From Cyanidioschyzon merolae (lineage: Eukaryota): 64,000 bases of DNA. Numbering within the stretch: the stretch's first letter is position 1; each line of letters starts with the position of its first letter. A program made the position numbers and the translations under genes. The stretch lies in the NCBI GenBank assembly GCA_000091205.1, contig AP006489.2. One strand, 5' to 3'. Positions 14,728 to 59,866 of this stretch are shown here, piece after piece. Under the pieces are notes generated by a model. It worked only from the letters and a program-made list of their open reading frames with translations, was not told the DNA's origin and ran no database searches.

Positions 14728-15079
14728 GAGTCTTCTACGGCTTTCTAGACCTCATTTCGTGTAGCAGGTTCCACGGCATTGCCTACCTCTGGATTTCGGA
14801 AATCATTGTACAAAAAGACACTTTACCCCCATGTCAGAATATCGTAGAAAGGGTCAACAGCGCTAAGTCGGCGAGCAATGCATAGTTTCGGTTTCTTCTC
14901 TCTATCATCAATACTAGCCATTGCGGGGTTTCTCAGCGACAGCTTCCTTTTTTTCCCTCTTGTCTCTGGCTTTAACCAGGTAAGGCTTTCCTTTTCCGTC
15001 AGCTCTATTCTGAGCAGTTGAACGACATGGATGGCATCGTTCAAGTTCAGGTTTCGCGACTTCCAACCGCTGTCGACAC

Positions 15080-15645
15080 GTTTCATGCACAGGCGAAAGT
15101 TGTGATCTACGCTTCGCTTGTCGGTGCCATATTCCTTGGACGCAACTTCGTTGCGCCTCCGTCGGTGATGACATTTGACGTTGGTGAGGTGTTCCTAGAT
15201 GTGCACCACACCTTCTCCTTCGAGGGCAACCCTGTGGTGCATGGACGTTTGCTTCATCACTCGGCACATGCCCTTGACGAGTACAGGAGGCGCCCCGAGT
15301 TCCGTGCTCCTTTTCCGCTCACGGTGCAGAACAATAAGATTTTGGGCTTCTTCTGAGCAATCACCTCAGCGAGTTCGTCGGATGCAGCAAGCGTACGCAT
15401 ACGCCGTTTCATTTGATACAGGATTTGTGGAATGCCATGCTGTCCATGATGAAACAACTACATATAGGATCATCCAGACTAGAGAACAATTCGAGAACAT
15501 TCGATCCGTCTGTTCTCCACTCGTACCGAGCGGTGAAGCACGCTTCATCAAGAGGAATCGCTCGGAAGCGTCAAGTACGAGTCCAAGACCCTTTTCCACG
15601 CAAACAGAAGCGAAGGAAGCCTCTGGGGGCATATACTCGAGTGAG
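15080..15645 (+). repeat. Interspersed repeat family B, copy 1 (~570 bp)
   Basis: This stretch is 75-80% identical at nucleotide level to 21040-21615, 41805-42365 and 53800-54380. Shared blocks include 'tttcatgcacaggc...', 'gcacatgcccttgac', 'caggatttgtggaatgc.atgctgt.catgatgaaacaa' and 'cctctggg.gcata'. ORFs within copies fall in inconsistent frames. Confidence 0.6.
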
Positions 15646-16646
15646 AACATGCTGCACTGGAATGCCGTTTCATTGATGGGCATATAGAGAGGAGTACTCG
15701 TCGTTCGAACGGAATCGATTATATGACGTGACGAGTTCAATGAACTCTCGGCATGAATTTGTGAACAATTCGCCTGATGACGACGTCGAGTTTTTCCCTT
15801 GCTAACCCGGCGATGATGTTGCCCGCACCTACGTGTTGCCGCGAAGCAGAAACATAGAGAACCTAAAGAATGCGGGAACTGGCATGCCAGCCTGTAGCAA
15901 GAAAGAGACGTCGCGACCTCTACATGTGAATAAGCTACTGGTATCGATCAATTTATGAAACCATGTTTGATAGCGGTGCGAATTATCATGATTCTGATGA
16001 TGGAACGAATGCCAGCGGAAAATTGCCGAGGGAGCCTCTCAGGGAAGGCGATTGGAAACCCAGAAGCTACATAGAAACCGCAAGCCCTCATCGATGCACT
16101 TTGATTGCACGGGCTGTTCATATTCAAACAGCTGCTGAAAATTTGGAAAGAAAGGAGCACGGCGAGCAGCTCACTTGTCCATTTTCATATGACATAGGTG
16201 TATGATCAAAACCCACCACTGAAAGACGAGTGATTCCGTTTCAGGAACCTCGCTCATGCGACCGACGCCAGCAAGCTCGCTCGCCCGAAGGCCAGTCTCG
16301 ATCCGGATGACAGGCGTCTCGAGGCGAACCCAAATTTGGCGACGCCCGCTCGATCCACCAGGGCCGACGTGCACGCATGCTCGCCGCTGCTGTACACGTG
16401 TCCCGCACGAGGTGACGCGAGCCAGGGATCCAATCGCCACGCGCATGCCGCGTAGCACCCGTGGATGCGAGGCCCTGCGCTGCTCCGGTCCCGAGCGGGC
16501 AAAAGATCATGGTATGGCTGCTGCTTGGATACGCGTTGAGCTGTAGCAATATCGTTCCGCTTCTTTCGCTCAAATTTTTCAGGTCTCAACGAAAAAGTCT
16601 TCAGTAGAGCTCCGAAGATAAAACGCCAAATTGCGGAAGCAGTCGT

Positions 16647-17258
16647 ATGTATGCAGGAATGCGTCTTAGAGTTGTCGCATTGCTCTTGATGCTCGTCACA
16701 TATCTGTGCGTTCCGAGTGCTGCGCTCGGTGTTGCCGCTGAGGATACGATTCAGGGCTCGCGTACCGTTCTCCGTGCTGCACCGGGCACAGAGTTTCGGA
16801 TTGGTGGCCCTGTCACGATCCAAAACATGACGATCGCTGCAAACTATCTCGTTGGAATCGAGGTGGCGCCAATGCCCCCGGGCATGCCAGATCCAGCGGC
16901 ACAAAATGTTGTGCATTTGGAGGCTGATGTGCACGCCACATCCACGAATCCCTGGGGATTCCCCAATGGATCCTGGATCCCGTACCTGAGCATTGTCTAC
17001 ACGATCAGCAAAGAGGGATCATCCTGGAGCGCCCGGGGTGTTCTCAGCCCTATGACTGCAGATGATGGCCCGCACTACGCCGACAGTCTGACACTTGCGG
17101 GTCCGGGTCGCTATGCGCTCATATACAAGCTCATTCCACCGCAAGTGAATGGTTTTCTAAGACACGTTGATCACGCGACTGGTGTGCCCGACTGGTGGAC
17201 GCCCTTCGAGGTGCCGTTCAACTTCACGTATCCGGTTGAAACAGCGTCAGCATCTTAA
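16647..17258 (+). CDS. Secreted P19/Ftp-family Fe2+ transport (Fe/Cu-binding) protein homolog, the periplasmic partner of FTR1 permeases in bacteria.
   Basis: The 203-aa ORF starts with a signal peptide, 'MRLRVVALLLMLVTYLCVPSAALG'. The motif 'HLEAD' (H-x-E-x-D) is followed by a Met exactly 46 residues after the His ('SPMTADDGPHY'). A His lies 7 residues after that Met, and a distal 'RHVDH' follows. This reproduces the remembered Cu/Fe ligand spacing of Campylobacter P19 (H42, E44, D46, M88, H95, H132). Confidence 0.75.
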   Translation: MYAGMRLRVVALLLMLVTYLCVPSAALGVAAEDTIQGSRTVLRAAPGTEFRIGGPVTIQNMTIAANYLVGIEVAPMPPGMPDPAAQNVVHLEADVHATSTNPWGFPNGSWIPYLSIVYTISKEGSSWSARGVLSPMTADDGPHYADSLTLAGPGRYALIYKLIPPQVNGFLRHVDHATGVPDWWTPFEVPFNFTYPVETASAS

Positions 17259-18124: not shown

Positions 18125-18330
18125 GCGGCACACGGCAATGTCAACATCCCTTGAGCCGACGCCCTCTGTGGTACGGCAACGCCGTTGTGTCTCCGTGCAG
18201 CGACCGCACCGGTGCTATAGGCGCTATTGCTGTCGCTTTCGGCAGGCTCGGCACTCGATAGGACGTATGTAGCGACCAGAATATCCGAGACGAGGTATAG
18301 GTAATGTATCTTGGAGGTAGGGCGTTTGAT
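18125..18330 (-). repeat. Interspersed repeat family A, copy in reverse orientation
   Basis: The reverse complement aligns over ~140 bp with 35335-35480. The conserved core is 'aacggcgttgccgt.cca.agag.gcgtcggctc.a', and '...tgccgtgt' also matches. Confidence 0.55.
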
Positions 18331-19219
18331 GGATACCTCACCTCGCACTGAAAAAGACACAAAAAAGTAAGAAAAGAAAAATGCGCATAATCGGAGAACG
18401 CTGGCCTAAGTAACCGTTTTGTCAATGAAAACGTCAACATCCGCCTCCCTGCCGGCATCTATCGATCATGTCTGGTACAGCATCGTTGGCACCAGTTCTC
18501 CATGGAAATAAATCAAAGAATGATGATCCGGGAGCAAAGGCATCTGGGTCTTTCCTCAACGGATGCCGGGGCGGTAACGTCACCAAGCTCCAGCGGCAGA
18601 TACCGCGAGTGCATGCCGCAGCCGCATTAGAATGCTGTGCGAGCTGCGCAAAGTCACGAGGAGCCCTGGCAATCGACGCGCATGCTACCAACGCCGCACC
18701 TAGAGTTGCGGTGCAGTCAAGGCTCGGGAAACTTTGATTCGGCACTCTTGTTGCGCGGTATGACATTGGTGCTGTCGTGCCGGATGCATCACGACATCGA
18801 TGCGGGAATGCGTCATGCATCTGCAAGTTCGACGCTCGCGTCAAGCACAGCGCCAGGCTTTTGATAGTGAGTCGAGGCGCTTCTGGAGCGAACAATGGTT
18901 TTTTTTCTGTGAATAAATGAGCTGCTAGTTGCGTATATCGATGTGAATCGGAGCGCGCCATTCGCGGAACGCATGGTCAGCGTCTATGCTCCCAGTTCAC
19001 GCAGATGCTGATCCATAGTTATACATATATCTACATATATGAATCGTTTCGTGGATGAATACGGTTTGAGGCGGCATGCGCTGCAGCATCGCGTCGCACG
19101 CCTCTGTCCTGGCACCAACACTGGCGCAACTCTGTTCGCCATACCGTTGTGCTGTACTGACAGCTCCGCCGCGGGCGTCTACGAGCGTGACTGAGTCGCA
19201 CCGCTGCCGTGTATAACGC

Positions 19220-20578: not shown

Positions 20579-21039
20579 AACGCACTGCATCGTTTCATGC
20601 GTGTTGAAAACGCTCTGAGGAGCATTGGCATCAGGCATCTGGCTTACGTATCCCAGAATACATGCATCGTCTACGAAATCGACCTGGCGTCATGGAGTGT
20701 CCATCGAACTCGCGGCAGTCCAGTGTGCTGGATCCAGGAAGAAATGCATAGCACCAGGTCGAGAAGCTGTTGTTGTTGTTGTTGACATCAATCTGAGTCC
20801 ATGTCAGAGTGAAATGTACGAGGTCCTCTATTTCGGTCGTACGCAATAATGTTGGGGTCTATTCACGCTGTCATGAACACCAGACACTGTAGTATTTTTC
20901 TGCGGCTGCTTCGCGTATCTCGCTCCTTTATTCGGCTTTAAAAACGCTGGTCTCGCCTGTCCTTTCAGCTTCGTTCTGAACAGTCGAAGGATGTCAATGG
21001 CAGGATTACAATCCGGATTTTACAGTTTGCGGCTGCTGT

Positions 21040-21615
21040 TGACGCATTTCATTAACAGACAAAAATTGCTATTGACGCTTCGCTTGTTATTGTCATCCTC
21101 TTCGTATCCACCCTCGGTACGCCCTTCGATGCATTGACACACGACTATGATGCGTTTTTTTCGTATGTGTGTACGGAACCTCTCCTCCTCGAACGCTACG
21201 CTGTGAAACGTGGACGCTTCGTGTATCGCTCGAAACATGCGCTTGGCGGATACAGAAGGCCCTCATCGATACCATCCGTCGTTTTTGCACCTGGTGCTGT
21301 GTCCTACGATCATAGGCTTCTTCTGAGAAATGCCCTCGGCGAGTACGCTGTCCGCCGCTCACGCAAGCACGCGCTGTTCCATTCGACAGAGGATCTGTGG
21401 AACGCGAGATTGTCCATGAAAGGAAAATTACCCTATGGAAAATCCACACTGGAGATCAAACCGAGAAATATCGATTCGTCTACGCGACCCACTTGCAAAA
21501 AAAGTACCGCGTTATCCACTGGTAGCGATTACTGCGATGGCTCAAGTCCGAGTCCATGGCCCTTTACGATGCGGACGGGCGACAAAGAGCCCTCTGGGAG
21601 CATATCCCATCATAT
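21040..21615 (+). repeat. Interspersed repeat family B, copy 2
   Basis: Nucleotide similarity to 15080-15645 and 41805-42365. Matching blocks include 'gacgcttcgcttg', 'tgatcataggcttcttctgagaaatgccctcggcgagtacgc' and 'gaggatctgtggaacgcgagattgtccatgaaagg'. The same orientation holds for all copies. Confidence 0.6.
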
Positions 21616-23274
21616 GGATCATGCTCACGTCGAATGCATTCTCGATGATACTCCCATAGAGGCGAGGATTTGGCATTCGAACGGAATCCATTCTTTAAAG
21701 TTGCGTATTCAGCAATCGCTCGGCATGGGCTCGTAAAGAAGTCGTCGAGGGGCGACGTCGAGATTCTTTCCTCGTCAATCCACTGGCGCGAATTGCAACG
21801 TGTATGATTAGTTAATGAAAAGAAAAATCGAGTTATTGAAGTATGCGTGATTTGAGCATGTTCGCTGTCAGGAACTGGGAGGCGTGCAGGTTAGCGCATA
21901 TAAACTGGATAGTCGTATCTGCCGCTTTACGAACCATTGTTCGAGGGCTTCGCGAATGTTCTTCACTCCGGTGAGATAACGCATTCCATTGGTGACATGT
22001 TTTAGGCACTTCTACGGAGCGAAGACCAAGAATCCTCAACAGTACTTACGGACCCGTAAACCCATATTGGAGTACTTCGATTGTCGAGGCTGTATATCTT
22101 GAGGAAAAATCACCCGGAAAAATAATCGAGATACAAGAAGCGAGCGATCAGTCTAGTGTTCCATTTTACTCTGACACGGGTGTCGTACCCTGCGACTTTT
22201 CTGATGACTGAGATTTCGGTGACTGCTCGCGAAAACGCGTCCGATTTCAGGGCAACTAGACATATCTTCGGAGTAAATCGAAGCCGCAGGCTATGGTCGA
22301 CTAGCGAGAACAGTCTCGTGCGTCACGCACGTGATAGACACCGGGGAATGACCGAAAACCAGAGGCGCTTCCGTGCCCGCTGCTCCCTCGCTGGATGAAG
22401 TCCATGCAAAATCCTGCTTCCAAAGCAAAACCTTTGACAACAGATATGCATCTCAACCTCTTTCTTCTGAGTTTCCGGATTTCACACTGCTTATTGCTGG
22501 GTCACAAAGCGCTCTGCCAACTTCTTTCCCTCAAACGCCATCGTCCGCACCAAGGCCACACAAGTTCGCTCGTACCGATTCCGGCCTGTTCTCGACATGC
22601 CTCGTTCTTCCTCATCGGTACCGAGCTTAAAATTCGTTGCCTGTAGCACCGTCTTCATGTCTGCGGAAACAGTTCCTCGGGTTGCGAGGCAGTGTGAGCG
22701 CCCATGGCCTGCATTCAAGTCAAACCGAATGCATTATCCAAGTACGATGTACGCATGCGTTTCATGCTCATGTGCGCTATGCTTGACCGATCCCCGGGAC
22801 GCTTTAGTTTTTGAACCATCCTGGAGACGCTATGACGCCAGGCGATTCCCGCTGCAACCCTGGGACGACGGTTACCAAGTCCCGTCTCGTGGCCACTACA
22901 GAGGCTGCGGGCTCTACGAAGCCAATTCTCACTGCTGTGCGGTGTGTGAAACAATCTTTGCTTCGGTCCAGTGTCGCTCGAGTAGTTCTCTGCCGCCATT
23001 GGACCTATTTATGCGATCGAAAGTCCGTACCGAACCGGATTTGTTTTGCACGGAAAGCGCCGGTCTTGAGGTAAGTTTACCGTCCTGATGCTGTCCTCAT
23101 TTCCTGGGTCGCAGCTGCAGAACAACCCCGAAAAGCACATGTCTCTCTCTTTAGCGAGCCGTGAACGCTCTAAACTTGTCCATTAAAGCAAGAGTAGCTC
23201 GAACCGGTCAAACGTACATCCCAACAGTGCAAGCGCGACGCAATGCATAGGCGAGCCGCTGGCTGCTAGGTAGC

Positions 23275-33318: not shown

Positions 33319-35334
33319 ACAGCCAAGGAGAGACAGAGAGAGGGTTTCGTGATCTGTGCTCGGTTCGTACGCCGAGCGTATTCAGGTTTTGCACGTGCAC
33401 TGGTGCGCATGGCTAGCCGCATACGCGAACAGCCTAGGGTGCAGGTGGCGAGTGCGCACTGCCCCGAAAGCAGATATGCATAAACCCAGCGCCCGTGCGC
33501 TGGTGTCGTTCCTGGTGATACCTTGAATCGGGTTGTGGTCTGGTTCGCACGAGCGTCCTGTTACAAAAGCCGATCAGCGTGATTCGAGGCCAAAGATGGA
33601 CCCACCGGAAATCTTCCAGATATACGAAGGCAGCTTTGCGGCACCGTGCCTTGGGTTATACGGGGGTTTACCACCAAGCATGTTCGTACTTTGCGCGGTC
33701 TGCTTCCGAGACCTGTCTCCGATGAGCAGCACAGCACGCCATCAGCAAGCTGTGCTCCAAGCGATGCTCTCGCTCATTTGCTCGCTTCGTTAAGCGCCGA
33801 GTGAGCGCGCTGTCATCCGGCAACATGAGACGGTGGATCCAAGACGGTGCACGCTTGGCGCTCTCTCACAGAATCCACACGACAACTGCAGAGATTCTCA
33901 AGTCGTCTGGCTGAATCCGATGCTTCGCACACGCCCATCCAACCGCATATTGCCGATGTTGACGCGCTCCTCGCTATAACCCGTCTGAAACGAATACGAG
34001 AGGCACCTCAAACGTCAGATGGGCGGCAGCAGTGTACGTTCCAAACTGTGATGCGTATCGTTCATCACTTTCCCTAAAAATACATCCTGCAACTTTTTGG
34101 ACACCTCATACGACCGAGCAGCGAATCTCTCTCCGCATCTCGTGCCAACGTGCACCGTCATTCATACCGCTGCGAGACGGCAGCGTGACTGACTTCCTGA
34201 CACCGCCGGCTCCGATCCAAGGCCTCTGTCACGCGGCTGGGACACGACCAGTGGAACGACCGCCCCTTCGCCCATGGCGCTGCTGGGGCCGCAGCCTTCC
34301 ACTTTTCCCGCCAGACGCACGAAAACGTCCCGCGCACTGAAAACGAGCGCGCCATCGGCCATGCGACGCCGAAGATCGGATATGCGCAGCTCCAGCTGCA
34401 GCTGCGTCCTTGCGACTCCATCGCTTGGATCGGGGCGAGAGGCGCAGCGCTCGGAAACCTCGCGAACAAGTCGGCTCTCGGGGGCTTGCAAGCTCAAGAC
34501 CAAACGATACGCTAGATGCGAGTCTGGAAGAAACGCGAGGCCGCACGATACCAGCTCGCCCAGTACGAAGAGCATGTCGAAGCTTTCCAAAGCCGTGCTG
34601 AGGAACTTTTGACCAAGATCGACAGCAGGTTAGAGAGACTGTGTGAGCGCCTGGAGAAAGTAGAAGAAAAGTGTTGCCAACTCGTCGGAATCAATCCCCA
34701 GCAGAGGGCAGGAGAAAAGTAGGCTGCGTCAACGCCGCACGAGAGCACCGGGCTGGCGTTACCGTTAACGAGAGGCAGGCACGACACGCGAAGCGCTGCG
34801 ACAGCGCGGTGCGTGCCTCGGCCTCATGACGAGCTCAAAGACTGAATCCAGTCCTGAACAGGGTCTCCCGTCGACGCGGCTCGGTCTTCGGACCTGGACA
34901 GCTGTTCCCGTAAAGCCTGCAGCTCAGCTGCCTGACGCTGAAGCTCCGCCTCGAGCTTCCTCCGCGCGTTGCGCTCCCGCTGCGCGTTCATAGAACTACC
35001 AGCCAAATAGCCGATAAAAACTGCACCCACTCGCGCAAAGTTCAAAAGACTCGTATACGACGCCGTGGCACCAGCTGAACCAACAGTTCCGGAAACCATT
35101 CCTGTCTTCTCAGTGCAGTATACCCGTTCCGGGTAGACAGAACGACGCGGATTCGCTGACGGCGAGCAGTGCGCGACTCTACCGATCCACTTTTTTCTTA
35201 ATTTGATCAAATGTTCATAGAGGCCAGCGTTCCCCAGCTGTGCGCTTTGTATCCGCGCGCGGTCATTCATCCATCGATCCACGTCCTACTTCCAAGTTCC
35301 ATACCTCATTCTTCTTCTCGGATATACTCGTCGT

Positions 35335-35480
35335 TTGATCTGCTCTATCGAGCGCCGAGCACCTGCCCTGATCGTCTGCGACAGCGCCTGTACCGTTGGT
35401 ACGGATGCAGCTCGGCAACAGAACGGCGTTGCCGTGCCAGAGAGAGCGTCGGCTCGACAGGTTAAACGAATGCCGTGTCA
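35335..35480 (+). repeat. Interspersed repeat family A, copy with conserved ~140-bp core
   Basis: It shares 'cctgatcgtc.gc.a...gcctgtaccgttggtacggat.cagc.cgg' with 53545-53700 and 'aacggcgttgccgtgccagagagagcgtcggctcgacagg...tgccgtgtcacgg' with 18125-18330. Confidence 0.55.
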
Positions 35481-36844
35481 CGGAGGCCTCCCATTCTTGT
35501 TGGACCGGCCACCCTTCCAATGGTTTCAGCTTCTCCTTGTGCATAACGGCTCTGAGAGGCTGCCCCACAAAGTTCGCTCGTGTCTGCTCCGCGGATCACG
35601 TCTTCAGTACCACACATCGTCCGATATGGATGGCGGCATTGAAGTCTCGGTTCACGGATTCTATGCGTTTATTGCCTCTGATTGAACAGATCCTTTCAAG
35701 GCGTCGTTGAACGCTCGCCCCCTGTTCGATTTGGTGCTCTATCAGCTATTCAAACTTTCCGATCGCCGAGGCGCTTCGCAGCCTTCCCACCGTCTCGATC
35801 TTCAGTATTGTACGCCTCTGCTGAATCTTTCGATTTTTTACTTTTGAAAATGGATGCACTACTTTGTACCCTTTTAAGTGAGGGCCTTCTCGGGGCGAGA
35901 AGGACTTGCGGAAGAAAGACGAGATGTGCTGCCTTGTGTTACGCTGTGTTGAAAACTTCATCAATTCGCCCAGAGCAGCGATCGCTACGTTTCACGATAG
36001 AGAGCACTCTTTCGATGCGGCTCAACAATGGACAGTACGGAGGAATGAAGAGCAGCTCTACCCGATAGACCCGGCAAAAGCTCGAACGCAAGCGGAAATA
36101 TCAAATGCAACGTTGTCCAAAGGAAGGACGTGGCAAGACCTTGAGAAGAAAATTTTCAAGGATTCAGTGGAGTAGATCGTGGCGTTGTATGAGCTTGCTG
36201 TACGGGCGAAACTGAGACCGTCGAAAGAATCCACTGCATCTATACTAGATAATGATGTCGTCGTTCTCTTCGAGTTCGATCTTAGATACAACGGGTTCCC
36301 TGTACGCGAATACCCAGATACGCTCCGATTGTTTCATCAGAAGCAAGTCTCACCGACTGGAAAAACAAACCGGCGTCCCTGTGCTTCATACGGATCGGAA
36401 CGTTCCAGGAACGCTGTCGCTGCGATTCCGATGGAAGATAGCCTTGCACGAACCAGGGCATTTTGGGAATGTATCACGGTGTTTTTGCGATCATATGAAC
36501 GAGCTGGCGAGAAAAATACATACAGGTAATGGCTATTGTCATCGCTCTCGCCTTCCGAAAAAAAGGGGTTCAAAGGGTCATTCTCTACCATTGACCTCAG
36601 GAAGTATCTGAAAATATCGGTTTCTTTTGGCGCGAAGCGCAGAATACTTGTTTCTTTCTGTGTTCTTCAACGATCTGAGCTCTGTGGACTGGCCGACTGA
36701 CCTGCATGAGGAAACCAGCCCTCCATACACTATTTAGAAAAGAACATATATCCTACAGGCAGTTCGTCGACGATCTATAGGGTACGCTGCATCGTGATAC
36801 CGATCTCCTGCAACATACCGCAACAGGGGTGAAACACAACTGGA

Positions 36845-38314
36845 TTGAAAAGCCAGAAAGTCCTGCTGCCGACCTGGCCTGGGCTGGGCATCTGCCCGTC
36901 GGCGATTATCCGGACAGCACCGAAAGCGCTCCGCCTGGTTACGCTAACCGAGGTGTTTTTGGGCTTTTCGGTTGCCGCTGAGCGAGGTTCGCCCATAACC
37001 AACCTGCACTGCTGCACCAGTGGCATGCGTCGTCTGGAGCAGAGCGAAGTGCAGGCTAGCACAGGAAGCGATCACGTTTCGCTGGTCTCTTTTCTGGCAC
37101 TGCAAGCACTCCTATACGCTACCGCCCTCAGCGGTGTTCTGGTGCCTTGCTTGGGCAACGACAGCGACACTGAGGTTGGGCAAGTGTCCAGCGCCGCCTG
37201 CGAGGAATTCGGCCCGCAAGCCGACCCCAGACTGAGACTCGCAGTAGCGCGGAGGACGCAGCGGCCCCAAGCGGCTCGGCGTTCGTGGAAACACGTTTTC
37301 GAGGACTGGGGTCGCGGCGTTGCCGCTGGGGTGCTCCTATCCGCAGCGCTGGTGCATATCCTCCCGTCCAGTGCTGTGCAGCTCGAAGATAACCTAGCCA
37401 CTGCGTACGGAATGGAACGCAGCACTGCTGTTTCTCTGTTGGGAACCTGTTTCCTCGTAGGCGTGCTGGGTGTCTACTGCATCGACTTGAGAGCGCGACG
37501 CGCTGCCGACGCACCCAGATTGCCAAGTCCGTTATGCGTAGACGCTCGAGCGCCACATCCTTGGGGCGATTGTTCGCAGCGACCGGCACCATCCGAGCGA
37601 GTGGATTCTGGACATCCGCTTTCCCAGCTCGAAGCACACCCTGCATCGACAAGCGCTGCATTGCAACGTTCACAGCCTGCAACTGCCGAGCACCATCTGC
37701 GGCCAATCTGGAAAATCCTGCTCTGCTCGCTGTCCTTTCACGCCCTATCAGAGGGTATGGCGCTTGGCTTGTCCGTGTATCGCACGTTCGTCGCGATGTA
37801 CCTTGCGATTATTTTGCATAAATTTTTCGCGGGGCTCGCGCTTGGCGTATCGCTTGCCAGCGCAAGAGAGCCAATGGCGCGTTGTCTCAGGGCTGGAGCG
37901 CTTTTCGCAGCGGCAACGCCATGTGCCGCTACCCTAGCGAGGCTGTCAGCGCACTGGAGTCAGTTGGACAGCGCCCGCTCGGGAGGAGCAGTCCGAATCG
38001 TAGGCGGCCTCCTGAATGGAATTGCTGCCGGGAGTTTCCTAGCGATCAGTTTACTCGAAATCATACCTTGTCCGAGGAATTCTGCTGAAGCTAGCCAAGT
38101 GGCGCCATGGATTGGAAAATCGCACGAAAATGCCATGGATTGGTACCGGGGAACGCCCGGCTATGAGACGCTAACGACAGCGGATTCATGTGCAACCCTG
38201 AATGCTGGCGTAGATACGGCTGCAGATCCAATGGCAGCGATGTCGAGTCGACAAACGCTCGTTCCGTTGCTTTTTAGTGCGGCTACATTCTCGCTGCTTG
38301 CGCTGTGGATTTGA
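36845..38314 (+). CDS. ZIP-family zinc/iron transporter. The true start may be a downstream Met.
   Basis: ZIP signature helices are present: 'AGVLLSAALVHILPS' and 'HALSEGMALGLS...ILHKFFAGLALGVSLA' (HxxxE / H-K/R-xxxG-LALG). There are multiple TM segments and a His-containing variable loop. Confidence 0.75.
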   Translation: MKSQKVLLPTWPGLGICPSAIIRTAPKALRLVTLTEVFLGFSVAAERGSPITNLHCCTSGMRRLEQSEVQASTGSDHVSLVSFLALQALLYATALSGVLVPCLGNDSDTEVGQVSSAACEEFGPQADPRLRLAVARRTQRPQAARRSWKHVFEDWGRGVAAGVLLSAALVHILPSSAVQLEDNLATAYGMERSTAVSLLGTCFLVGVLGVYCIDLRARRAADAPRLPSPLCVDARAPHPWGDCSQRPAPSERVDSGHPLSQLEAHPASTSAALQRSQPATAEHHLRPIWKILLCSLSFHALSEGMALGLSVYRTFVAMYLAIILHKFFAGLALGVSLASAREPMARCLRAGALFAAATPCAATLARLSAHWSQLDSARSGGAVRIVGGLLNGIAAGSFLAISLLEIIPCPRNSAEASQVAPWIGKSHENAMDWYRGTPGYETLTTADSCATLNAGVDTAADPMAAMSSRQTLVPLLFSAATFSLLALWI

Positions 38315-40554: not shown

Positions 40555-41804
40555 CTAGTCAGGCGGGTAGGCAGTCTGCCTGAATACGTTCGTACGTATG
40601 GGTGTCGCGCGCGACTCGAGAAAGTAACGACAGCAGGTAGAGGCGCGCGTGGATACTCCGCCAAGCTCCGACGTGAGACACGGGGGCTGGTTGCTCTCAT
40701 ATGCACGTTGAGGGTGCCTATGCTTTGAATGCACGTAGTTGTAGGTGTGTCTGCTTTCCAGGGAAAAACTGTGCAGGAATATGGGCGAACGGATGCAGTG
40801 TCTGCATAGAAAAACGAAAGCGTTGAGCAGTACGCGTTTGTTTTTCATAGTAGCTATCGGAAAATCGACGCTTCGTTGCTTGATCCCTGAACAAATCAGC
40901 AGAAAGGTTGCAATGAGAAGTCTATCTTGCCGGCAGCAAGTCTCGAGCAGGCATCCTGGCAAGCTGGCTGGTTCCCGATCTAGCGAAATCAATACCACGA
41001 AAACGAGCTGCTTCCGGTGTCGGTGCACTGTGCTCGCGGTGCCTCTACTACGTCGTGTCGCGACTTGTGCCGCTGGAGCGTGAACTCTGCCGCAGAACGA
41101 TACGCAGCGCGAACAACAAAGCACGCTGTTGCTGTGGAGCTGTCGCAGCTCCTGCTGACAGCATCAGGCTGCGTAACCTGGTAGAGTCTCGTTCGGTGCA
41201 TCGATCTCGTTTGGCGTACCCGACGGACTACACGAATCAGGGAATCGCTGAACCATACGCAATGGTTATTGGCATCTGGGAGAGCGTCCATTATGCTGCA
41301 GGAGACTTGCAAGCTCCACTGGGTACCAGCCATAATTCCATGCGGATATCATGGTCGATTCAAATGGTCTAATAGGTGCTGAGCTCACCGTACGCGCTCA
41401 CTACCAAGTCTGTGGATGCATGGATCCTGTGCAGTTGATAAAGCATCCACGTTCGAAACCGATACTTGGTACGATGGTAGACAGTTCTTTCATGCCAGCT
41501 GGGCGTGCTGCAGGACGGTGCATGTGCTCGCTGCTCATCCTCCAATGCTCGACATGCACTCTTGTGAGAATTAAAAATGAAACAAGTCCATGAGCACGGG
41601 GCGTGCAAGTCTAACCTGGGATCTATCTCTGCTATCAGCAATACCAGCGTTTGCGGGCTTTTTCGAAGACGACTTTGTCTCTCTGATCTCCGGATTTGAA
41701 CACGTTGGTGTGCCTGCTTTTCGCCCAGCTCCGCTGCGGGCAGTCGAATGAAGTTGACAGCAGCTTTCAAGTCCCGAAATCAAAGCGCCAAGCTGTGATT
41801 CAAG

Positions 41805-42365
41805 CATTTCATGCACAGGCAAGCGTTCCGATTTGCGCTCGGCATGCCAGATTCATACTTTTTTTGTGTATGGCCTCGATGCGCACTTCGTAGCGGTGAC
41901 GCTCGGCACGGGTATGGTAAGGGGTTTCCATGTAAGAAATGTGCTTTCACCTGCGGGCGGTGCACGACGGTGCATGAACGCCTGCCTCATGGCTCGGTAC
42001 ATGCCCTTGACAGGCGTACAAGGCTTTCCTCGATACTCGGCTCGGTTTCCGCCCCGGTGCACCGCACCCTATGATCACAGGCTTTTTCTGGGCGATCCCC
42101 TTGTCAAGGACGCGGTCCGCCGCACGCGCAAGCTGTTCTGTTCGATACAGGATTTGCGGAATGCGATGCTGTTCATAATGAAACAAGTACCGGAACGAAA
42201 CTCCATCTTGGAGAACAAGTCGCGCAGCATCGATTCGTTTGCGTTGCTTTCGTACAAAGCGGTGGTGTACGCTCTACTGGAAGTGATCGCTGCGATGACA
42301 GGTGCCCGAGTCGAACACCCTTCCCGACGCAAAAGATAGAGATGCAGACGCTATGGAGCATGCTC
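41805..42365 (+). repeat. Interspersed repeat family B, copy 3
   Basis: It aligns with 15080-15645 across ~560 bp. Matching blocks are 'catttcatgcacaggcaagcgtt', 'ggtacatgcccttgacagg', 'tgatcacaggctttttctgggcgat' and 'caggatttgcggaatgcgatgctgttcataatgaaacaag'. Confidence 0.6.
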
Positions 42366-43093
42366 CGCGATAGGTAGCATACTGCCGTAAAGTACCGAAT
42401 CATCAACGGCTGCAGAGAGAGACAGCATGATTTGTCTATCGAATAAAGTCGGTTATTTAACGGAACAAGTTCAGTAACGTTTTTGCATGAGCCTGCGACA
42501 AAGGATTCTGGGAGATTCTTTGGGGGGTTTCGTTCCCCCAGCAACCCAGCGGCATGCTCAGTTGCGCCGCCGAGTTGCCTCAAAAGATAGTCGTATAGAA
42601 AACCTGAAGCAGTTGTGATATGGGCATGGTACACGTAAGGAAAGGAGCAGCGTGGACTATCTTACACACGAATTGGATAAAGATATCGCGTACCTTACGA
42701 AGCTTTGCTCAAGATCGTCTCAAACCATCTTGACTCCTGGAATGTCATGAATTCCAGTGGTAAAGCATCGAAGGAGCAACGCTGAAAACGCGATCAAGAA
42801 CCCTAACGCTGCGTGTGAGTCCGTGAACCCCCATTGCTGCCATTCGAATGCCACGGCTATCTATCTACACAAATTTTCGGAAAATAATCGAAAGCCTGGA
42901 AGAGAGCACCCAGTACCGTATTCCGAAATGTTCTGACATGGGCGTGCGACACAGCTTCCGCCAATTTTGAGAAGCGCGCTCCGTGAGCCGCGCCAGGTAT
43001 TCGAATACTTTAGACGTAGACAGCGTCTTGGTACCAGCATCCATAAGAGATGCTGTTTGGCAGCTACTGGAGCCCAGTGTGTGGCTGGTTTGA

Positions 43094-49425: not shown

Positions 49426-50029
49426 CCTCGCGAATGGAGTCTAGAGTGGGTATCGTCGAAAAATACAAGTCTATGATCGTTGACGAATTGCCCACGACAA
49501 TCGTTACCAGTAGAAAGAGGTAGAGAGAGAGCTATGCGGCGCGTCAGGCTTGCTCAGTCGCTGAACCCCTCCATACCAGTCCTTTGATCAACGCGAGCAT
49601 CCAGAGCGGTATCTCCTGGTCACCGAGTTTTTGCATCGGAATGCAGCTGCGTTTCAGTACAATGGCCGCACAGAGTGCGAAACGAGTCTCGTTCAAGTTC
49701 GCTCGACACGAAACCGCTGGACGCGACTGAAGCGCAGGACATTTCCGGGTATCGATCGCTGCATGCAAGTAGCGGTTCGGAAAGTGCATGCCCTGCTGGG
49801 TACTGGTGGCATCGCAACACAGCAAGTGTCACCACCAGGTCGATAGTCGCGCCATCTGATGTTGCATCAGTTACCCGATGTACGATCTTGTGAGTCTGGC
49901 TCTGTTTCACGCGCCTCTACGCTGCCGGATTCAACAGGCACCTGTGCTCGCGATACACGTACTTTGTCCTTATTCATTCGCGAAACTCGCATAGATCCGA
50001 TTGCTGGACTCGGTGTATGCTCCTGTCGA
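49426..50029 (+). repeat. ~600-bp dispersed direct repeat, copy 1. It is >98% identical to 57071-57672.
   Basis: The identical ORF translations listed at 49544..49825/57188..57469 and 49620..49910/57264..57554 reflect near-identical DNA. Boundaries were read from where flanks diverge (start 'cgcgaatggagtctagag', end 'ctcctgtcgat'). Confidence 0.8.
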
Positions 50030-50533
50030 TAAAGTCGATGTACTCCGTGTGCGGCGCCCGAAAAGCACACCGAGCCTTGGGCGCAATGCCTTGCTGCTTA
50101 GCCCTCTTGCTTCTGCTTGTAAGGCTGCTATGAAACTTGGAACTCTGTGTCCAACCCGCAACGAAGACCCGTGCTACTATGCCACGCACCTAGAACCAAG
50201 ACTGTTCCAGTGCAGCCTGGGGGTATCTTCGTGCTACTGAGACGCTACCGACAGTGCGTGCGTTCACTTCGCGGCCTCTGCTGGACGCTAGTGCCAGACA
50301 GTCGAGGCTGACTGCGACTCAAGTGCAGTTATGCAGTTCGCTTATCGGGCTCTATGCTCTACACGAGACGCAGCGTCTACAGCACGTTGCAGTCGCGACA
50401 CGCACGCGTGCTTGAAAAGCACCGGTGGCTTCTTCTCTGGTCGCCCTTGTCACGCGCGCTTGCGGAAGCTTGATTTAAGGACACATCGCGCACAGCATAC
50501 AAGAGCACGCTGTACGTCCTCGCACGAAAACCG

Positions 50534-52757: not shown

Positions 52758-53204
52758 TTACTTAAGCGGGATGAAACGTGACGACGATGAGGCACCAATA
52801 CCTGGCCTCCCGTGCTTAACTGGCTTGTACGTCAAACTGAACTCGCCAAGGTAGTGGCCAACCATATCCCCGCGGATTTCAACCTCGTTGAAGGTGCGCC
52901 CGTTGTGAACTCCGAGGCGTGCACCGATCATCTCCGGAACTATGATCATGTTCCTGCAGTGCGTTTTCACAATCTCCGGCTTGCTGAACTCATCAGGGAC
53001 TTCGGCCTTCGCTTTTCGAATTTTCTTTATGAGCGAGGTCTGCCGACGGTCCAGGCCACGCGCGAGCTTCCGCCGAGCGCGTGCTGGTAAGAGCTCCACC
53101 ATTTCATTGTGCGGCAGCGCAAGAAGTGCCTCCAGGTCTACACCTCTATAGGAAAACTTGCGAAAAGTTCGCTTCTTAGGCGCTGATGAGCTTTCCTCGT
53201 CCAT
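52758..53204 (-). CDS. RPS15: 40S ribosomal protein S15 (uS19)
   Basis: '[18 protein letters not shown]...[56 protein letters not shown]' matches eukaryotic RPS15 along its length. Confidence 0.95.
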
Positions 53205-53544
53205 GGGTTACGCACGCGAGCTTTCCACGTTCAAGGGGTAAACCGTGTACGCCAAGCAGCGCAGAGGGCGGCATCTAAGCGAGTCGCGGCGAGGCCGCGA
53301 GCGGCGACCGCATCTTCCTCATGCTGTACCTTACGCACTTTTAGGGATATATCTGGACTTCATTGGCCTGTCCGATGCGTGCGCGCCTATTTTTGTCCAT
53401 TTTGATGCAATGCTGACCAAGCCAGCGTTCTCTGACCCGGTGCTCGGTATTCGCACGCGGTGGAGCATTCGTGATTCCAGGGCCCGCTTCCAAGTCCCAG
53501 AACCCATCCTTCATCCCGTATACACAGGTTGCTTCATTCGTTCG

Positions 53545-53700
53545 ATCGCTTGCCCAGCGTCTCCCCTGATCGTCCGCAATACTGCCTGTACCGTTGGTAC
53601 GGATACAGCACGGATGCAGTACGGCGTTGCTGTGGTAAACGAGGGCTTCGGGCTCGAGGTTTGCCTCAGACGACACTGAATCAGGGCTCGTCGCCAGTTT
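53545..53700 (+). repeat. Interspersed repeat family A, copy 3. It lies directly upstream of a family B copy, forming a composite.
   Basis: It shares 'cccctgatcgtccgcaatactgcctgtaccgttggtacggatacagcacgg...cggcgttgc' with 35335-35480. Confidence 0.5.
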
Positions 53701-53799
53701 GTGCTCAGCCAGTCTGCGGTTGCAAACTTGCCTTCGCTGCACGACACGTTGGAGCAACTTGGCTGTTAGGATGAATCCTGGGAGGCGCCTCTCTCCTTT

Positions 53800-54380
53800 G
53801 TGATCGTTCATGGAATGCACGATCGTTTAGCGACGCGGGCTATTGCTAGGCACCCACCAGTGGGTAGGCGCAGAAAGCGCACTGGGCCCGTGTGCGCATC
53901 CGATTCGCTGGACCTTTTGCCCAGAGGGTGGCTTGGGCGCGAATGTCCGCCAGGCCGCCGCCTGTCTGTGGCGCACGAACGCTTGCTTCATCGGTCGGTG
54001 CATGCGACGGGCGTATGCAAAGGGTTACACCCTGGATGCTCCTCTCGGTTTGCGCATCCGGTGCTGTACTCTGCGATCATGGGCCTCTTCTGGGCGATTG
54101 CCTCGGCGAGTGCTCTGTCTGCTGTAAACACAAGCGCAAGCGGTTTTACTAGATAGCGGTTATGTTGCATGGGATTTCATATTCTTGATGAAACAGGTAC
54201 CGGGAGGAAAATCCAGGCTGGAGCAGAAGTCGAGAAATGTCGATCTGCCAATGCTCCTTTCGTCCAAATAAGCGACGCCCTGGACATGGAAGCGATCGCC
54301 ACGATGGCTGAATTCCGAGTCCGAGGCCTTTTTCCAGGCACACAGAAGAGACGGAACCCCCTGGGGGCATAGTCCATAAG
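53800..54380 (+). repeat. Interspersed repeat family B, copy 4 (the most diverged)
   Basis: It carries blocks from the other copies: 'gcttcatcggtcggtgcatgc', 'gatcatgggcctcttctgggcgattgcctcggcgagtgc', 'gatgaaacagg' and the terminal 'ccctgggggcatagtcc'. Confidence 0.5.
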
Positions 54381-54995
54381 ATGCAATGCCGCTGCCTGGT
54401 GCCGTTCCCGTGAAGGCCACAAAGAGAGGAGTCTATGTCTGTCATTCGGAATCAATTATGATTTGATTTGACAAGTTCTCGGAAAGTTCGGCTGGAGCTT
54501 GTGTCCAAACAGCGTCAGGCCGACGTCGAGTGTGTTTTTCCTCGTCAGGCCAGCGGCACGAGTTGCTGCATCCATGCATTGCCATGAGATCGAAGTATAG
54601 AAAATTTGGAGAATGCATGGTTTCGGCATGCGGGACGTTTGCAACATTAGAAAATTGGAGGTGTGTACATACGCACTGGATAACGATATTCGTTATTCTA
54701 CGAGCACGCGTTCACTAGCGACGCCAATCATGACGAATTCGTTGACAGCACGCATTCTGGCGGCAGCGTCCCAAAAGATCGATTCCGATGAACGCGACCG
54801 TGAAACCCAAAACAACGAATGATTCGATGAGCCCTGATTCATGACCTTCGAAAGCCGAACCTGTACAGCTTCAAAAAAACTTTCGGAAAAATATTCCAAT
54901 GGTACGAACAGAGCAACCAGTTTAGCGTTCGGTTTTCCGCTTTACGGATTCAAAGCACCGCACCTGGTGCAAGCCGCAACTGCAGCGCGGCGCCA

Positions 54996-55590
54996 GCGCG
55001 GACGCCCACCCCCTGCCAGCGTGGGGCCCATGGAGGTATCGTCTGCTTAGTCTCTAAAGTGGTAATCTATGGTAGTTTTATGCAGAATGACTTGGCAGGC
55101 GCTATGGACCGCGAGGGCGCTGCGCTCGCGTAGCAGATCGTGCAGTTTTATGCGTTGGTAATATAGTGACGCGCATGCGCTTGCGCGGACGCCCACTCCC
55201 TGCCAGCGTGGGGCCCATGGAGGTATCGTCTGCTTAGTCTCTAAAGTGGTAATCTATGGTAGTTTTATGCAGAATGACTTGGCAGGCGCTATGGACCGCG
55301 AGGGCGCTGCGCTCGCGTAGCAGATCGTGCAGTTTTATGCGTTGGTAATATAGTGACGCGCATGCGCTTGCGCGGACGCCCACTCCCTGCCAGCGTGGGG
55401 CCCATGGAGGTATCGTCTGCTTAGTCTCTAAAGTGGTAATCTATGGTAGTTTTATGCAGAATGACTTGGCAGGCGCTATGGACCGCGAGGGCGCTGCGCT
55501 CGCGTAGCATATCGTGCAGTTTTATGCGTTGGAGATATAGTGACGCGCATGCGCTTGCGCGGACGGCTATTACTTGCCAAAGCTGACCAT
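54996..55590. repeat. Tandem array of ~3.1 copies of a ~187-bp unit, immediately upstream of and running into the annotated start of the bilin reductase ORF.
   Basis: Unit starts ('gcgcggacgcccac.ccctgccagcgtggggcccatggaggtatcg...') fall at 54996, 55184, 55370 and a partial one at 55558. Copies differ by only a few substitutions. Periods are 186-188 bp. Confidence 0.85.
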
Positions 55591-57070: not shown

Positions 57071-57672
57071 GGCGCGAATGGAGTCTAGAGTGGGTATCGT
57101 CGAAAAATACAAGTCTATGATCGTTGACGAATTGCCCACGACAATCGTTACCAGTAGAAAGAGATAGAGAGAGAGCTATGCGGCGCGTCAGGCTTGCTTA
57201 GTCGCTGAACCCCTCCATACCAGTCCCTTGATCAACGCGAGCATCCAGAGCGGTATCTCCTGGTCACCGAGTTTTTGCATCGGAATGCAGCTGCGTTTCA
57301 GTACAATGGCCGCACAGAGTGCGAAACGAGTCTCGTTCAAGTTCGCTCGACACGAAACCGCTGGACGCGACTGAAGCGCAGGACATTTCCGGGTATCGAT
57401 CGCTGCATGCAAGTAGCGGTTCGGAAAGTGCATGCCCTGCTGGGTACTGGTGGCATCGCAACACAGCAAGTGTCACCACCAGGTCGATAGTCGCGCCATC
57501 TGATGTTGCATCAGTTACCCGATGTACGATCTTGTGAGTCTGGCTATGTTTCACGCGCCTCTACGCTGCCGGATTCAACAGGCACCTGTGCTCGCGATAC
57601 ACGTACTTTGTCCTTATTCATTCGCGAAACTCGCATAGATCCGATTGCTGGACTCGGTGTATGCTCCTGTCG
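57071..57672 (+). repeat. ~600-bp dispersed direct repeat, copy 2 (pairs with 49426-50029)
   Basis: Only isolated substitutions separate the two copies across ~600 bp, e.g. 'gaggtagag' vs 'gagatagag', 'ctcagtcg' vs 'cttagtcg', 'gtcctttgatc' vs 'gtcccttgatc'. The flanking sequences are unrelated. Confidence 0.8.
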
Positions 57673-59866
57673 ATGGAGCTGGGGTGTGGATTTTGCGGGC
57701 GGCAGCGCATCCAGCACCATAGGCTATTACCGAACGATGAGACTGGCATGTCATTTTTTCTGGTGCACTGAATAAATTGGCGAATGCACGCGTCTTGGCT
57801 CCGAACAATCAAACCCATTCGCGACGTGAGCCCGGTCTTTTGAACTCCTGCAAATGATCGTTTGCGCATAAGATGTAAAGACGTTCATGTACACGCTGAA
57901 TAAAACCTCCAATGTATCTCGCTCCGCTCCATGCAGTACGGGGTGCATCGACATGCGTTCTGACGTGGTCATGTCGCTCGTTGGTATGCCTCGTGACGCC
58001 CATTTAACTCGAATTTCGATCAAAACAAACGCTGGAGTGATAGAGTATCTGCATTCGGCTCGGGTCTTTGGCTTCATCCCCTTGATTTAGCGGCCTTGGC
58101 GACGACCGCGACACCGTGAACTACGGGTTCCAGGCTCACCACGAGGCTTTTCTCGTTGTCAATTGTGAACGGTTGGCAGTGAAGCTCGTTGCTCGACTCT
58201 GGTCCAGATGCTGCGAACTGCATGCAGATTGATGTTCCGTGGGTCTCCCGTATCCCTGAAAACTTCTATCTATTTGTTTCCTGTAAAACGAGAAACAATG
58301 TACGCGCTACGCCAATCCTTTTCGCAAAGCTGTTTGAGTCGTTCGTAGTTGCTCGCAGTAACTAGCTCCTTCTTCGCCTTGTCTTTTACTTGGCGGGTTG
58401 GTATACATAGGGTCACTGTACGCGATATACGGTTATTTTACTCGGAATGCAGACGAACGGAATGGGCAGCGGTACCAAATTTCGCCTTTTATAATCGTAT
58501 ACCCTCTATTGTACAAGTGGCGTTTCTTATCTTCTCCGCCGAATGCACGTCCATGGACCGAAGCGTGTCCCTCTGCTCCCGAGCGTATTCGAGCAGGAAA
58601 GCAACCCCGCAATTCATGGCTGGCGAAAGTGGACACGGACTTGTCTACTGGTACATTAGTAATAAATAGTGTTTTGTCAACAGAGAAGACGCTTTCAATT
58701 TGAATGAACCGGAATGAATAGGCTGGTTCGAAGAGCACCTCAACGACGCACTGCGCTCCATGGTCGTTGTTGATTGACGGAAAACGACCTTGTCGAAAAG
58801 CAGGACAAAAGCATGCCGGTCGGAGATCCCACGAAACGTGCTTCGACGACAGATGAGGTTTCCCATGACCCTTCCTGTATGGCAACTTGTCAGCGATTCC
58901 ATGACAGCGTCGCCACACGGGCTGATCTCGTCTCCATGTTCGCTTGATTCTCCTTTCCGAAAAGCGGCTCTCCCATTTTTGAGAACGCAATATCCATCGC
59001 CTCTATTTTCCCACGAATAACGTCCGATCGAATGAGGCGTTCATCCGTTCCTACTGAAACAAGCGTTTCCATTGCAGCACCAAGTCGATTACGCGACACA
59101 GAACGCACGAGCGAGTCTCGCCGCTGAAGCGCGCTTCTCCCTGGCTCCACCCGAGTATCTCTATCAGCCTCGGTATGAAGCATCCTGGAACTGCATATAT
59201 GCTGTGCCTCTCATGCTGGTGTTTCCTGGAGCATGCACGTCGTGGAATGATCTGAGCAGCACGCTCAAGTGTAGAGAACATGTATGGTGCATTCTGCTTT
59301 TTTTTGAGCGCACGACGTCCATGATCTCGACAACGACCGGGACGATTCATGCGTTCTCTCTGACCCTCGTATGACGAACTTGTAAGCGTCGGGTCTGTCG
59401 TTGACCAGCCAGCAGTGACGCCATCGAGTCTCATCGCGAGCTTTCGCCGACCAACAGGAATCGTTCTTGTTGTTGAATACCACCGAGAGGACCGAATAAA
59501 ACCAGAAACGGCATGCTGGTACGGGCATTCCGGATAAGCACAAGCACGTCAGTGGTCGATACCTTTACGTCACGCGCATCCTCAGCACCGATTCCTACGT
59601 ACCCTAGTCTCTATAGTTGCTCATAACTGAGACGAATATGACGGAACATGTCGCTCGCCTCCTTCGATTCGCATGCCGCTCACGACCGTCTCCGCGAGAC
59701 GTGCACACTTCACGCTGCGAAAGAGGAGAGCGCTCTCACCTGAGCGCTTTCCAGTTGACCGTATGTAGAAGAGAAACTGCTTTTCGTGGAGATATCTCCC
59801 GTGAAGCCCACGCAGCGCCAACCCTGTGCCACAAAGACCGCACGATTCTAATACCATCACTGCTAT

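Follow-up and report, generated by a model that had tools for sequence, protein, structure and literature searches.

The family A repeats of a Cyanidioschyzon merolae chromosome 7 region as the probable 5'-terminal module of the Fanzor1-carrying CMe-1A / TE-N2_CMe transposon family

A stretch of 64,000 nucleotides of the Cyanidioschyzon merolae genome (contig AP006489.2 of assembly GCA_000091205.1; the whole stretch is termed the window) contains three dispersed copies of a short repeat, designated family A, which an earlier reading of the sequence had described as a possible small RNA or head of a short interspersed element (SINE) with a sharply conserved core. The comparisons reported here indicate that family A is very probably (about 85%, in our estimate) the 5'-terminal module, ∼255 bp in length, of CMe-1A / TE-N2_CMe, a family of interspersed transposable elements (TEs) of C. 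merolae that carries the TnpB-like gene Fanzor1. The repeat was already known as a TE family, catalogued in 2007 and 2013 and present in Repbase, and should therefore be masked under the name CMe-1A / TE-N2_CMe, not followed up as a novel RNA gene. The end of the module, where the core lies, is moderately better conserved than the remainder and coincides with a recurrent junction, for which a cis-acting role is tentatively proposed.

Assignment of the family A copies to CMe-1A

The three copies were found at the places originally given, and their homology is far beyond chance (nhmmer E-values of 1e-84 to 1e-91), with pairwise identities of 67-71%. The shared segment, first estimated at ∼140 bp, proved to be longer and spans ∼260-290 bp. 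Comparison with the 3169-bp CMe-1A consensus (Bao & Jurka 2013, Mobile DNA 4:12, supplementary file 2) mapped consensus positions 1-255 onto the copies by blastn, and it is on this basis that family A is equated with the first ∼255 bp of CMe-1A (Table 1). Identity of the three copies to the consensus is 60-78%.

CMe-1A was described as a ∼3-kb Fanzor1 element with ∼150 copies in C. merolae, ∼80% identical to the consensus (Bao & Jurka 2013), and its 5' 635 bp also occur as a separate element, TE-N2_CMe, with ∼70 copies (Bao & Jurka 2013; Repbase). The window copies share with CMe-1A the host organism, the lack of terminal inverted repeats (TIRs), an old and diverged state and the match to consensus positions 1-255. 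They differ from it in being more diverged (60-78%, against the ∼80% quoted for the family) and in spanning ∼255, ∼260 and ∼545 bp, compared with the 635 bp of TE-N2_CMe. By these alignments the window copies appear to be older or sub-family variants of CMe-1A / TE-N2_CMe. All three are old, non-coding and non-autonomous, and comprise a short form (c18k), a TE-N2_CMe-like form (c53k) and a chimera (c35k); neither c18k nor c53k contains an open reading frame (ORF). In c53k the module itself occupies positions 53393-53659, the extension to ∼53945 being seen against the published consensus, and the copy resembles a ∼545-bp form of TE-N2_CMe. The other two stop at ∼255-260, a form shorter than TE-N2_CMe and absent from Bao & Jurka (2013).

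Table 1. Family A, its associated segments and other annotated features (window coordinates unless a metagenome locus is named)
Feature	Position	Strand	Remarks
Copy c35k	35195-35457	+	blastn to CMe-1A consensus 4-254 = 35204-35457, 71.6% identity, E=1e-34; nhmmer E=3e-91
Copy c53k	53393-53945	+	CMe-1A ∼1-545; blastn 50-533 = 53448-53929, 60% identity, E=3e-25
Copy c18k, short form (consensus 1-∼260)	18145-18432	-	blastn 70-260 = 18333-18145, 78% identity, E=2e-36
Weak partial copy without core (consensus ∼45-146)	41259-41382	+	nhmmer E=4.5e-5; blastn 41262-41371, E=2e-8
Core of c35k	35410-35458	+	contains ACGGC-GTT-GCCGT and GAGAGCGTCGGCTCGA
Core of c53k	53606-53659	+	most divergent version; TACGGCGTTGCTGT...GGGCTCGAG, two indels
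Core of c18k	18150-18199	-	AACGGCGTTGCCGTACCACAGAGGGCGTCGGCTCAAG
Direct repeat GGATGTTGAC, flanking c18k	left 18433-18442, right 18140-18149	-	10/10; null probability 0.0016
Degenerate Fanzor1 C-terminal fragment, fused directly to c35k core	35459-35825	-	translation ...ESVNRDFNAAIHIGRCVVLKT*; includes RuvC-III RD motif
Non-coding extension U	35826-36744		∼69% identity with L012; unrelated to CMe-1A; part of chimeric repeat
Ribosomal protein S15 gene	52758-53204	-	186 bp from c53k, which sits upstream of S15
Ferric-reductase-like gene	9856-12492		metal uptake
p19-type high-affinity Fe2+ uptake protein gene	16647-17258		metal uptake
ZIP metal transporter gene	36845-38314		metal uptake
Family B, window	∼14810-16201, ∼20800-22183, ∼41560-42945, 53966-54941	+ (all)	
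Family B, metagenome loci	L090:3880-5191; L050:1-1277; L034:2058-3446 and 5092-6451		

Additional copies in metagenome contigs

A single metagenome scan with a degenerate pattern of the core returned mostly chance matches; it also recovered orthologues of the window copies and five independent loci, termed L090, L064 (= L034), L107 (= L085), L050 and L012. The core is accordingly not confined to three places, and at least five more independent loci carry it in contigs of C. merolae-like type. With the three window copies these make eight independent copies, which sit in unrelated flanks. Those of the five metagenome loci contain ordinary nuclear genes, encoding an MFS transporter, a nitrite/sulfite reductase, ORC4, a UBC enzyme, a bestrophin and an aldo-keto reductase. 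Three of the four metagenome samples also hold contigs 99% identical to the window. A scan of IMG/VR with the core pattern yielded only matches with a 26-nt spacing (13 of 13), which were judged unrelated on spacing alone, and a protein search with the ORF that spans the core, aimed at unbiased copies, gave nothing useful.

Two of these loci contain additional repeats. In L090 (Ga0209012_1005188) a module copy and a copy of a second repeat, family B (see below), lie between the MFS transporter and nitrite/sulfite-reductase genes; we take these surroundings to resemble the nitrate-assimilation cluster of C. merolae chromosome 7. In L107 (5901-6266, corresponding to L085:4110-4219) a tandem array with a unit of ∼45-50 bp is located ∼0.5 kb downstream of a short-form copy.

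Association with Fanzor1 coding sequence

As in CMe-1A itself, Fanzor1 coding sequence is associated with c35k, L050, L107, L012 and L090. Beside c35k, consensus positions 2740-3081 match 35822-35483 in inverted orientation (blastn, 69% identity, E=1e-46), and residues 616-716 of the CMe-1 protein match at 35512-35811 (tblastn, E=3.5e-16). The segment concerned (35459-35825) is common to L012, L090, L050 and L107, and its minus strand encodes '...FVNRDFNAAINIRRCAVL...'. Near-complete CMe-1A copies of 2.4-2.5 kb (blastn, 83-85% identity) are present in L050 and L107, in which '...VGADPGNTNI...' and then '...VDEFRTS...' precede the C-terminal Fanzor1 segment. Together, VGADPG, VDEFRTS and NRDFNAA, distributed over L050, L107 and the window, represent the D / E-[TS][TS] / RD signature of TnpB/Fanzor.

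An earlier survey of the genome described 253 copies of a 3.2-kb interspersed element, accounting for 5% of the genome and transcribed (Nozaki et al. 2007), which carries a truncated ORF related to WSV486 of white spot syndrome virus (WSSV). WSSV in turn contains a single Fanzor1 element (Bao & Jurka 2013). This 'WSV repeat' (Nozaki 2007; Mikulski 2017) resembles CMe-1A in being interspersed, in its occurrence on all chromosomes and in its size (∼3.2 kb versus 3169 bp), and the two are very probably the same element. The description concerns the ORF-bearing element, whereas family A is its short terminal module. Half of the C. merolae repeats carry H3K27me3 (histone H3 lysine 27 trimethylation) and show low expression (Mikulski et al. 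2017).

The assignment is tempered by several observations. The match of the CMe-1 protein to Pfam is sub-threshold (PF07282, E=0.51) and its search against the PDB gave no match, so that its Fanzor1 status rests on the literature and on the motifs; WSV486 presumably corresponds to the Fanzor1 of WSSV. CMe-1A and TE-N2_CMe were described as lacking TIRs, as of unknown class and with undetermined target-site duplications (TSDs) (Bao & Jurka 2013). A C. merolae-like origin is presumed for the metagenome loci, and the fourth sample is tied to the others only by near-identical contigs (99-99.9%).

Modular architecture and ends of the copies

The chimeric nature of c35k is due to the fusion of position 255 to an inverted Fanzor1 3' end. 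The same structure, in which positions 1-255 are joined to inverted 3084-2737, is shared by three independent loci (c35k, L012 and L090). Compared with CMe-1A, the c35k type thus represents a chimera with the inverted Fanzor1 3' end and unrelated sequence, the latter extending for ∼900 bp beyond the inverted segment in c35k and L012; L090 diverges ∼290 bp past the junction. This extension (U in Table 1) is non-coding, with no period-3 pattern, stops in all frames and indels that are not multiples of three. L050 and L107 each contain a 5'-truncated copy that lies head-to-head against position 1 of another copy. The short form c18k carries a pyrimidine-rich insertion of ∼25 nt, common to L064 and L107. 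Position 255 is a frequent boundary: five of the eight independent copies end within a few bases of it, and nearly all pairwise alignments of the copies stop exactly at GGCTCGAG, the end of the core.

At the opposite end, TTTT occurs no more than 12 nt upstream of position 1 in six of seven copies, against a background of 3-4% (binomial p<1e-4), and a run of six Ts (35190-35195) forms the upstream edge of c35k. Direct repeats (10/10 and 10/11; null p=0.0016 and 0.02, respectively) border two short copies. A hairpin with a 7-bp stem occupies positions 3120-3145 of the consensus, 24 nt short of the 3' terminus; it is preserved in L050 and has decayed in L107. The hairpin of the core ends 25 nt before position 255.

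Other classes of repeat were considered and set aside. The module is not at both ends of any copy, as would be expected of a long terminal repeat (LTR) or solo LTR. No arms shared between the ends were detected in an inverted-repeat search of five copies; with no TIRs, and with flanking repeats of 10 and 11 bp in two copies and none in the others, a miniature inverted-repeat transposable element (MITE) or cut-and-paste transposon was rejected. A coding exon or small protein was likewise rejected, since a period-3 pattern is lacking and in at least one copy all frames are interrupted by stops; a Pfam search of the ORFs within the repeats gave nothing useful.

Conservation of the core block

The core corresponds to the last ∼50 nt of the module, at consensus positions ∼205-255, and within the window it was found only inside the module, never as a free-standing motif. 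The description of the core as almost invariant holds for c35k and c18k, in which AACGGCGTTGCCGT is identical and few differences occur elsewhere, but not for c53k, where the counterpart reads TACGGCGTTGCTGTGGTAAACGAGGGCTTCGGGCTCGA, with two indels and several substitutions. The repeat as a genuine dispersed family with a somewhat better-conserved end was nevertheless borne out. The excess of conservation in the core over its flanks is genuine, though not large: identity of the three window copies to the consensus is 76.5% at 205-255 and 65.0% at 1-204 (Fisher p=0.007), and in a column permutation of the same copies the best 35-column window reached p∼0.05. The corresponding values for the retrieved metagenome copies are 86% in the core and 71% elsewhere, and the excess is in the same direction in all seven full-length copies. 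At near-core positions unforced by the search pattern, the five metagenome copies are 85% identical to the consensus, compared with 72% elsewhere (p=4e-4).

Among copies of one subfamily, conservation near the core does not exceed that of other positions (0.72 versus 0.71), and the excess arises between subfamilies. This points to constraint on active source elements and not on each genomic copy; a between-subfamily excess is what constraint on propagating source elements, followed by neutral decay after insertion, predicts. The same pattern could also have arisen with no functional cause, through chance, mutation rate or composition, subfamily structure or gene conversion, the pile-up at 255 then reflecting recombination at a palindrome. 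Such an origin would be in keeping with the small size of the effect (permutation p∼0.05 in three copies; 76% versus 65%), with the absence of excess within subfamilies, with the two bases at which the core of the consensus differs and with the equally good conservation seen elsewhere in the longer repeat, as in a block at 36310 (80%). It would not be expected, however, to yield an excess that is consistent in seven of seven full-length copies and at positions unused for retrieval, nor, if the excess were noise, a conserved block that coincides with the shared end point of most copies. We consider it unlikely.

A possible end signal and comparison with Helitron2 elements

As a tentative proposal, to which we give somewhat less than even odds, the core may act as a cis-acting end or termination signal of active source elements, possibly Helitron2-like, that gave rise to the short form and to the junction at 255. 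The GC-rich hairpin followed by ∼25 nt would provide a site at which copying or transposition could end, mirroring the real 3' end, where the 7-bp-stem hairpin lies 24 nt before the terminus. Ending at the core signal would yield the short form and account for the repeated junctions at position 255, the T-run upstream of position 1 would fit insertion of the Helitron2 type downstream of TTTT, and the individual genomic copies would then decay neutrally. A protein-binding or cis-acting role of the core for the transposition machinery is plausible; the contrast drawn in the original prediction between a functional element and TE decay is false, since the sequence is a TE.

A basis for comparison is given by the CRe-1/2/3 elements of Chlamydomonas, Fanzor1 elements of the Helitron2 type that insert downstream of TTTT. 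Their incomplete ('one-ended') copies are accompanied by target duplications that vary from 7 to 19 bp, and a short, asymmetric inverted repeat links the 5' end to a site preceding the 3' subterminal hairpin (Bao & Jurka 2013). CMe-1A is similar in carrying Fanzor1 and in the upstream TTTT, and may also be so in flanking repeats of variable length and in its subterminal 3' hairpin. The two differ in that the incomplete CRe copies are 5'-truncated, whereas those of family A keep the 5' end and vary on the 3' side. In CMe-1A, moreover, the inverted match is only 10 nt long, marginal and 62 nt from the end, compared with 20-30 nt from the end in CRe. That CMe-1A is itself a Helitron2 derivative in which the core is a working internal end signal, with the short form, the 255 junction and the inverted chimeras all produced by premature termination or template switching, is a more specific proposition, and a doubtful one.

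The following points weaken the proposal. The five metagenome copies were obtained with the core as bait, and invariance at the baited positions is therefore uninformative. The published consensus reads ACGGCTTTGCCAT and differs from these five copies at two bases of the core 13-mer; hence the 13-mer and its hairpin, which is weakened by this sequence, are not invariant in the family. The direct repeats at the flanks allow more than one reading: only two of seven copies have them, and at the place of the right-hand member the other copies run on with weak sequence similarity. In L050, an apparent 7-bp 'target duplication' was in fact located within the element. The 10-nt inverted match in the consensus (5-14 versus 3098-3107, just upstream of the 3' hairpin) is marginal (p∼0.01), and homology of the core region to the true 3' end, although convincing by eye, is not significant (p=0.2-0.35).

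The main alternative to an end signal is that the module is a retroposon, either SINE-like or a copy of a processed transcript, on the opposite strand. On this view the core would represent a 5' end that carries a transcription start or an internal promoter, and the T-run what is left of a poly(A) tail; the direct repeats would be duplications made during target-primed reverse transcription, and the longer forms less 5'-truncated copies. Non-LTR retrotransposons, three of them with intact reverse transcriptase, are present in C. merolae according to the literature, but the module has no tRNA, 5S or 7SL head, and its RNA would be antisense to the Fanzor1 gene of the full element. T-runs of variable length (4-8 nt) abut position 1 in six of seven copies and the direct repeats around two of seven differ in length (10 and 11 bp); these marks, reminiscent of an A-tail and TSDs, are also expected for insertion of the Helitron2 type, and the related Fanzor1 elements that show TTTT and variable duplications are DNA (Helitron2) elements. 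The position-1 end is common to the copies and the other end varies (255, ∼545 and 3169), as a retroposon would predict, yet copies in L050 and L107 have lost their position-1 end, and one precise 'start' in five copies is left unexplained by random 5' truncation. On balance a retroposon origin appears unlikely.

The head of a SINE in particular found no support: ARAGORN detected no tRNA-like sequence, and Rfam none of tRNA, 7SL or 5S. A resemblance to the A box (9/11) was noted by eye, with no B box. A SINE or retrocopy of a host small RNA was rejected on the absence of an Rfam or tRNA match. Family A resembles the CORE-SINEs in being short, interspersed and non-autonomous, with one better-conserved block, a homopolymer run at one end and occasional direct repeats. 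Unlike them, it has no Pol III-type head, forms part of a DNA element with a TnpB-like gene and has its conserved block at the end and not in the centre.

Host regulatory and RNA functions

Co-option of the copies as host cis-regulatory DNA, for example as Myb-type AACGG/CCGTTG promoter sites, each under purifying selection, is improbable. AACGG-type motifs are present in the core sequence, but in the window no core is found except within the module, and the closest pair of copies is no better conserved in the core than elsewhere. In five to six of seven loci the T-rich end points towards the 5' end of an adjacent gene 100-800 bp away; this bias in orientation falls short of significance (p∼0.06-0.2), the supposed neighbours include further copies of CMe-1A, and one of them is an ORF unannotated in strain 10D. 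The neighbours include the ribosomal protein S15 gene, RPN5 and the nitrite/sulfite-reductase gene, but the region upstream of S15 in Cyanidiococcus has no element. A promoter function for S15 or the other neighbours was rejected on this absence and on the non-significant orientation bias. The H3K27me3 mark on half of the C. merolae repeats (Mikulski et al. 2017), being repressive, is a further argument against co-option.

A functional small RNA, as first proposed, was not supported, there being no Rfam match, no covariation and no excess stability. A search of Rfam found nothing relevant at E≤10 around two copies, and scans of the whole window for tRNAs and for Rfam families at gathering score gave no match. 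RNAalifold analysis of the eight copies gave 18 pairs with no compensatory change on the given strand and a negligible covariation term on either. Folding energies were indistinguishable from those of dinucleotide shuffles (minimum free energy, MFE, z-scores of -1.8 to +1, both strands). Of the hairpins described, GTACC-GTT-GGTAC is present in c35k and c53k, but only there, the other copies having a different palindrome in another register.

Guide RNAs of TnpB and Fanzor nucleases are normally encoded just after the 3' end of the nuclease gene. In c35k the module directly follows the Fanzor1 C-terminus on the same strand, and in three loci it follows the Fanzor1 3' end within ∼50-80 nt (the end of the reading frame being estimated by eye). 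These three 'downstream' cases are truncated pseudogene chimeras; the canonical element has its module at the opposite end, on the coding strand and ∼650 nt ahead of the ORF. The repeats are reported to be transcribed (Nozaki et al. 2007), but with no Rfam match, covariation, compensatory pair (on the given strand) or MFE signal, and with hairpins out of register between copies, a structured small RNA, or a guide or omega-RNA-type partner of the Fanzor1 nuclease, is very improbable indeed.

Gene context and other features of the window

The proteins encoded in the window are exact matches to C. merolae 10D BAM79605-BAM79624 by protein look-up, and locus tag CYME_CMG100C places it on chromosome 7 (584,452 bp). 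Its G+C content is 55%, both strands carry long eukaryotic genes without interruptions, and it shares ∼99% identity with several contigs from hot-spring metagenomes. Three metal-uptake genes are loosely grouped within 30 kb (Table 1). The ferric-reductase-like ORF, on the minus strand, contains a perfect (GCTGCTCCT)n array of ∼16 units (10335-10476), which encodes a low-complexity protein stretch.

Near c35k, an ORF at 34824-35099 (minus strand) encodes 91 amino acids, or 148 if counted from an upstream ATG located inside the repeat. It has a hydrophobic stretch and a coiled-coil-like tail and is called as a gene in several metagenome assemblies; no counterpart was found among the proteins of C. 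merolae 10D. It could be an unannotated small gene or spurious.

Two further duplications were observed. A 187-bp unit is repeated in tandem (∼3 copies, 95-99% identity) at 54990-55579, in the spacer upstream of the bilin reductase gene, and its copy number differs among metagenome strains. A 602-bp duplicate of 99.3% identity (49429-50030 and 57073-57674) brackets the block of kinase, S15 and bilin-reductase genes; this near-identity suggests recent duplication or gene conversion. Within the duplicate lies part of another Fanzor-like gene, far more diverged (49694-49876 and 57338-57850, both on the minus strand), with 31-35% amino-acid identity to CMe-1 (E=7.6e-13 and 1.5e-4).

Family B

The window also contains four copies of a second, very abundant non-coding repeat, family B. 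These measure ∼1.35 kb, share ∼60% identity and have apparent terminal inverted repeats (left ...CCATGTCAGA(A/G)T..., right ...TCTGACA(C/T)GGGTGT). Blastn of the consensus indicated that family B is not CMe-1A; it is probably a MITE-like class II element. A single composite element made up of A and B was rejected, as their relative order and orientation differ by locus and B is not CMe-1A.

Lineage specificity and implications

Neither family A nor family B was found in the syntenic 20 kb of Cyanidiococcus yangmingshanensis, a member of the sister genus, where the genes are still arranged as AlaRS, bilin reductase, S15, kinase, FEN1, Utp21 and amino-acid transporter. The copies are insertions in the Cyanidioschyzon lineage and not conserved promoters. 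Two spacers were compared, and both are three- to four-fold shorter in Cyanidiococcus; relative to that genus, the large intergenic spacers of C. merolae are filled by families A and B.

For biology at large these results change little. Three minor points may be new: a short form of ∼255 bp, a junction that recurs just past a subterminal block of moderate conservation, and the Helitron2-like hints. The short form, the 255 junction and the preference for TTTT together provide a clue to the movement of an unclassified Fanzor1 element. According to the literature C. merolae keeps some intact Fanzor1 genes, and for this reason the true ends of the element matter in any search for guide RNAs. CMe-1A is the main repeat of the C. 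merolae genome, and the Helitron2 reading, if true, would classify it.

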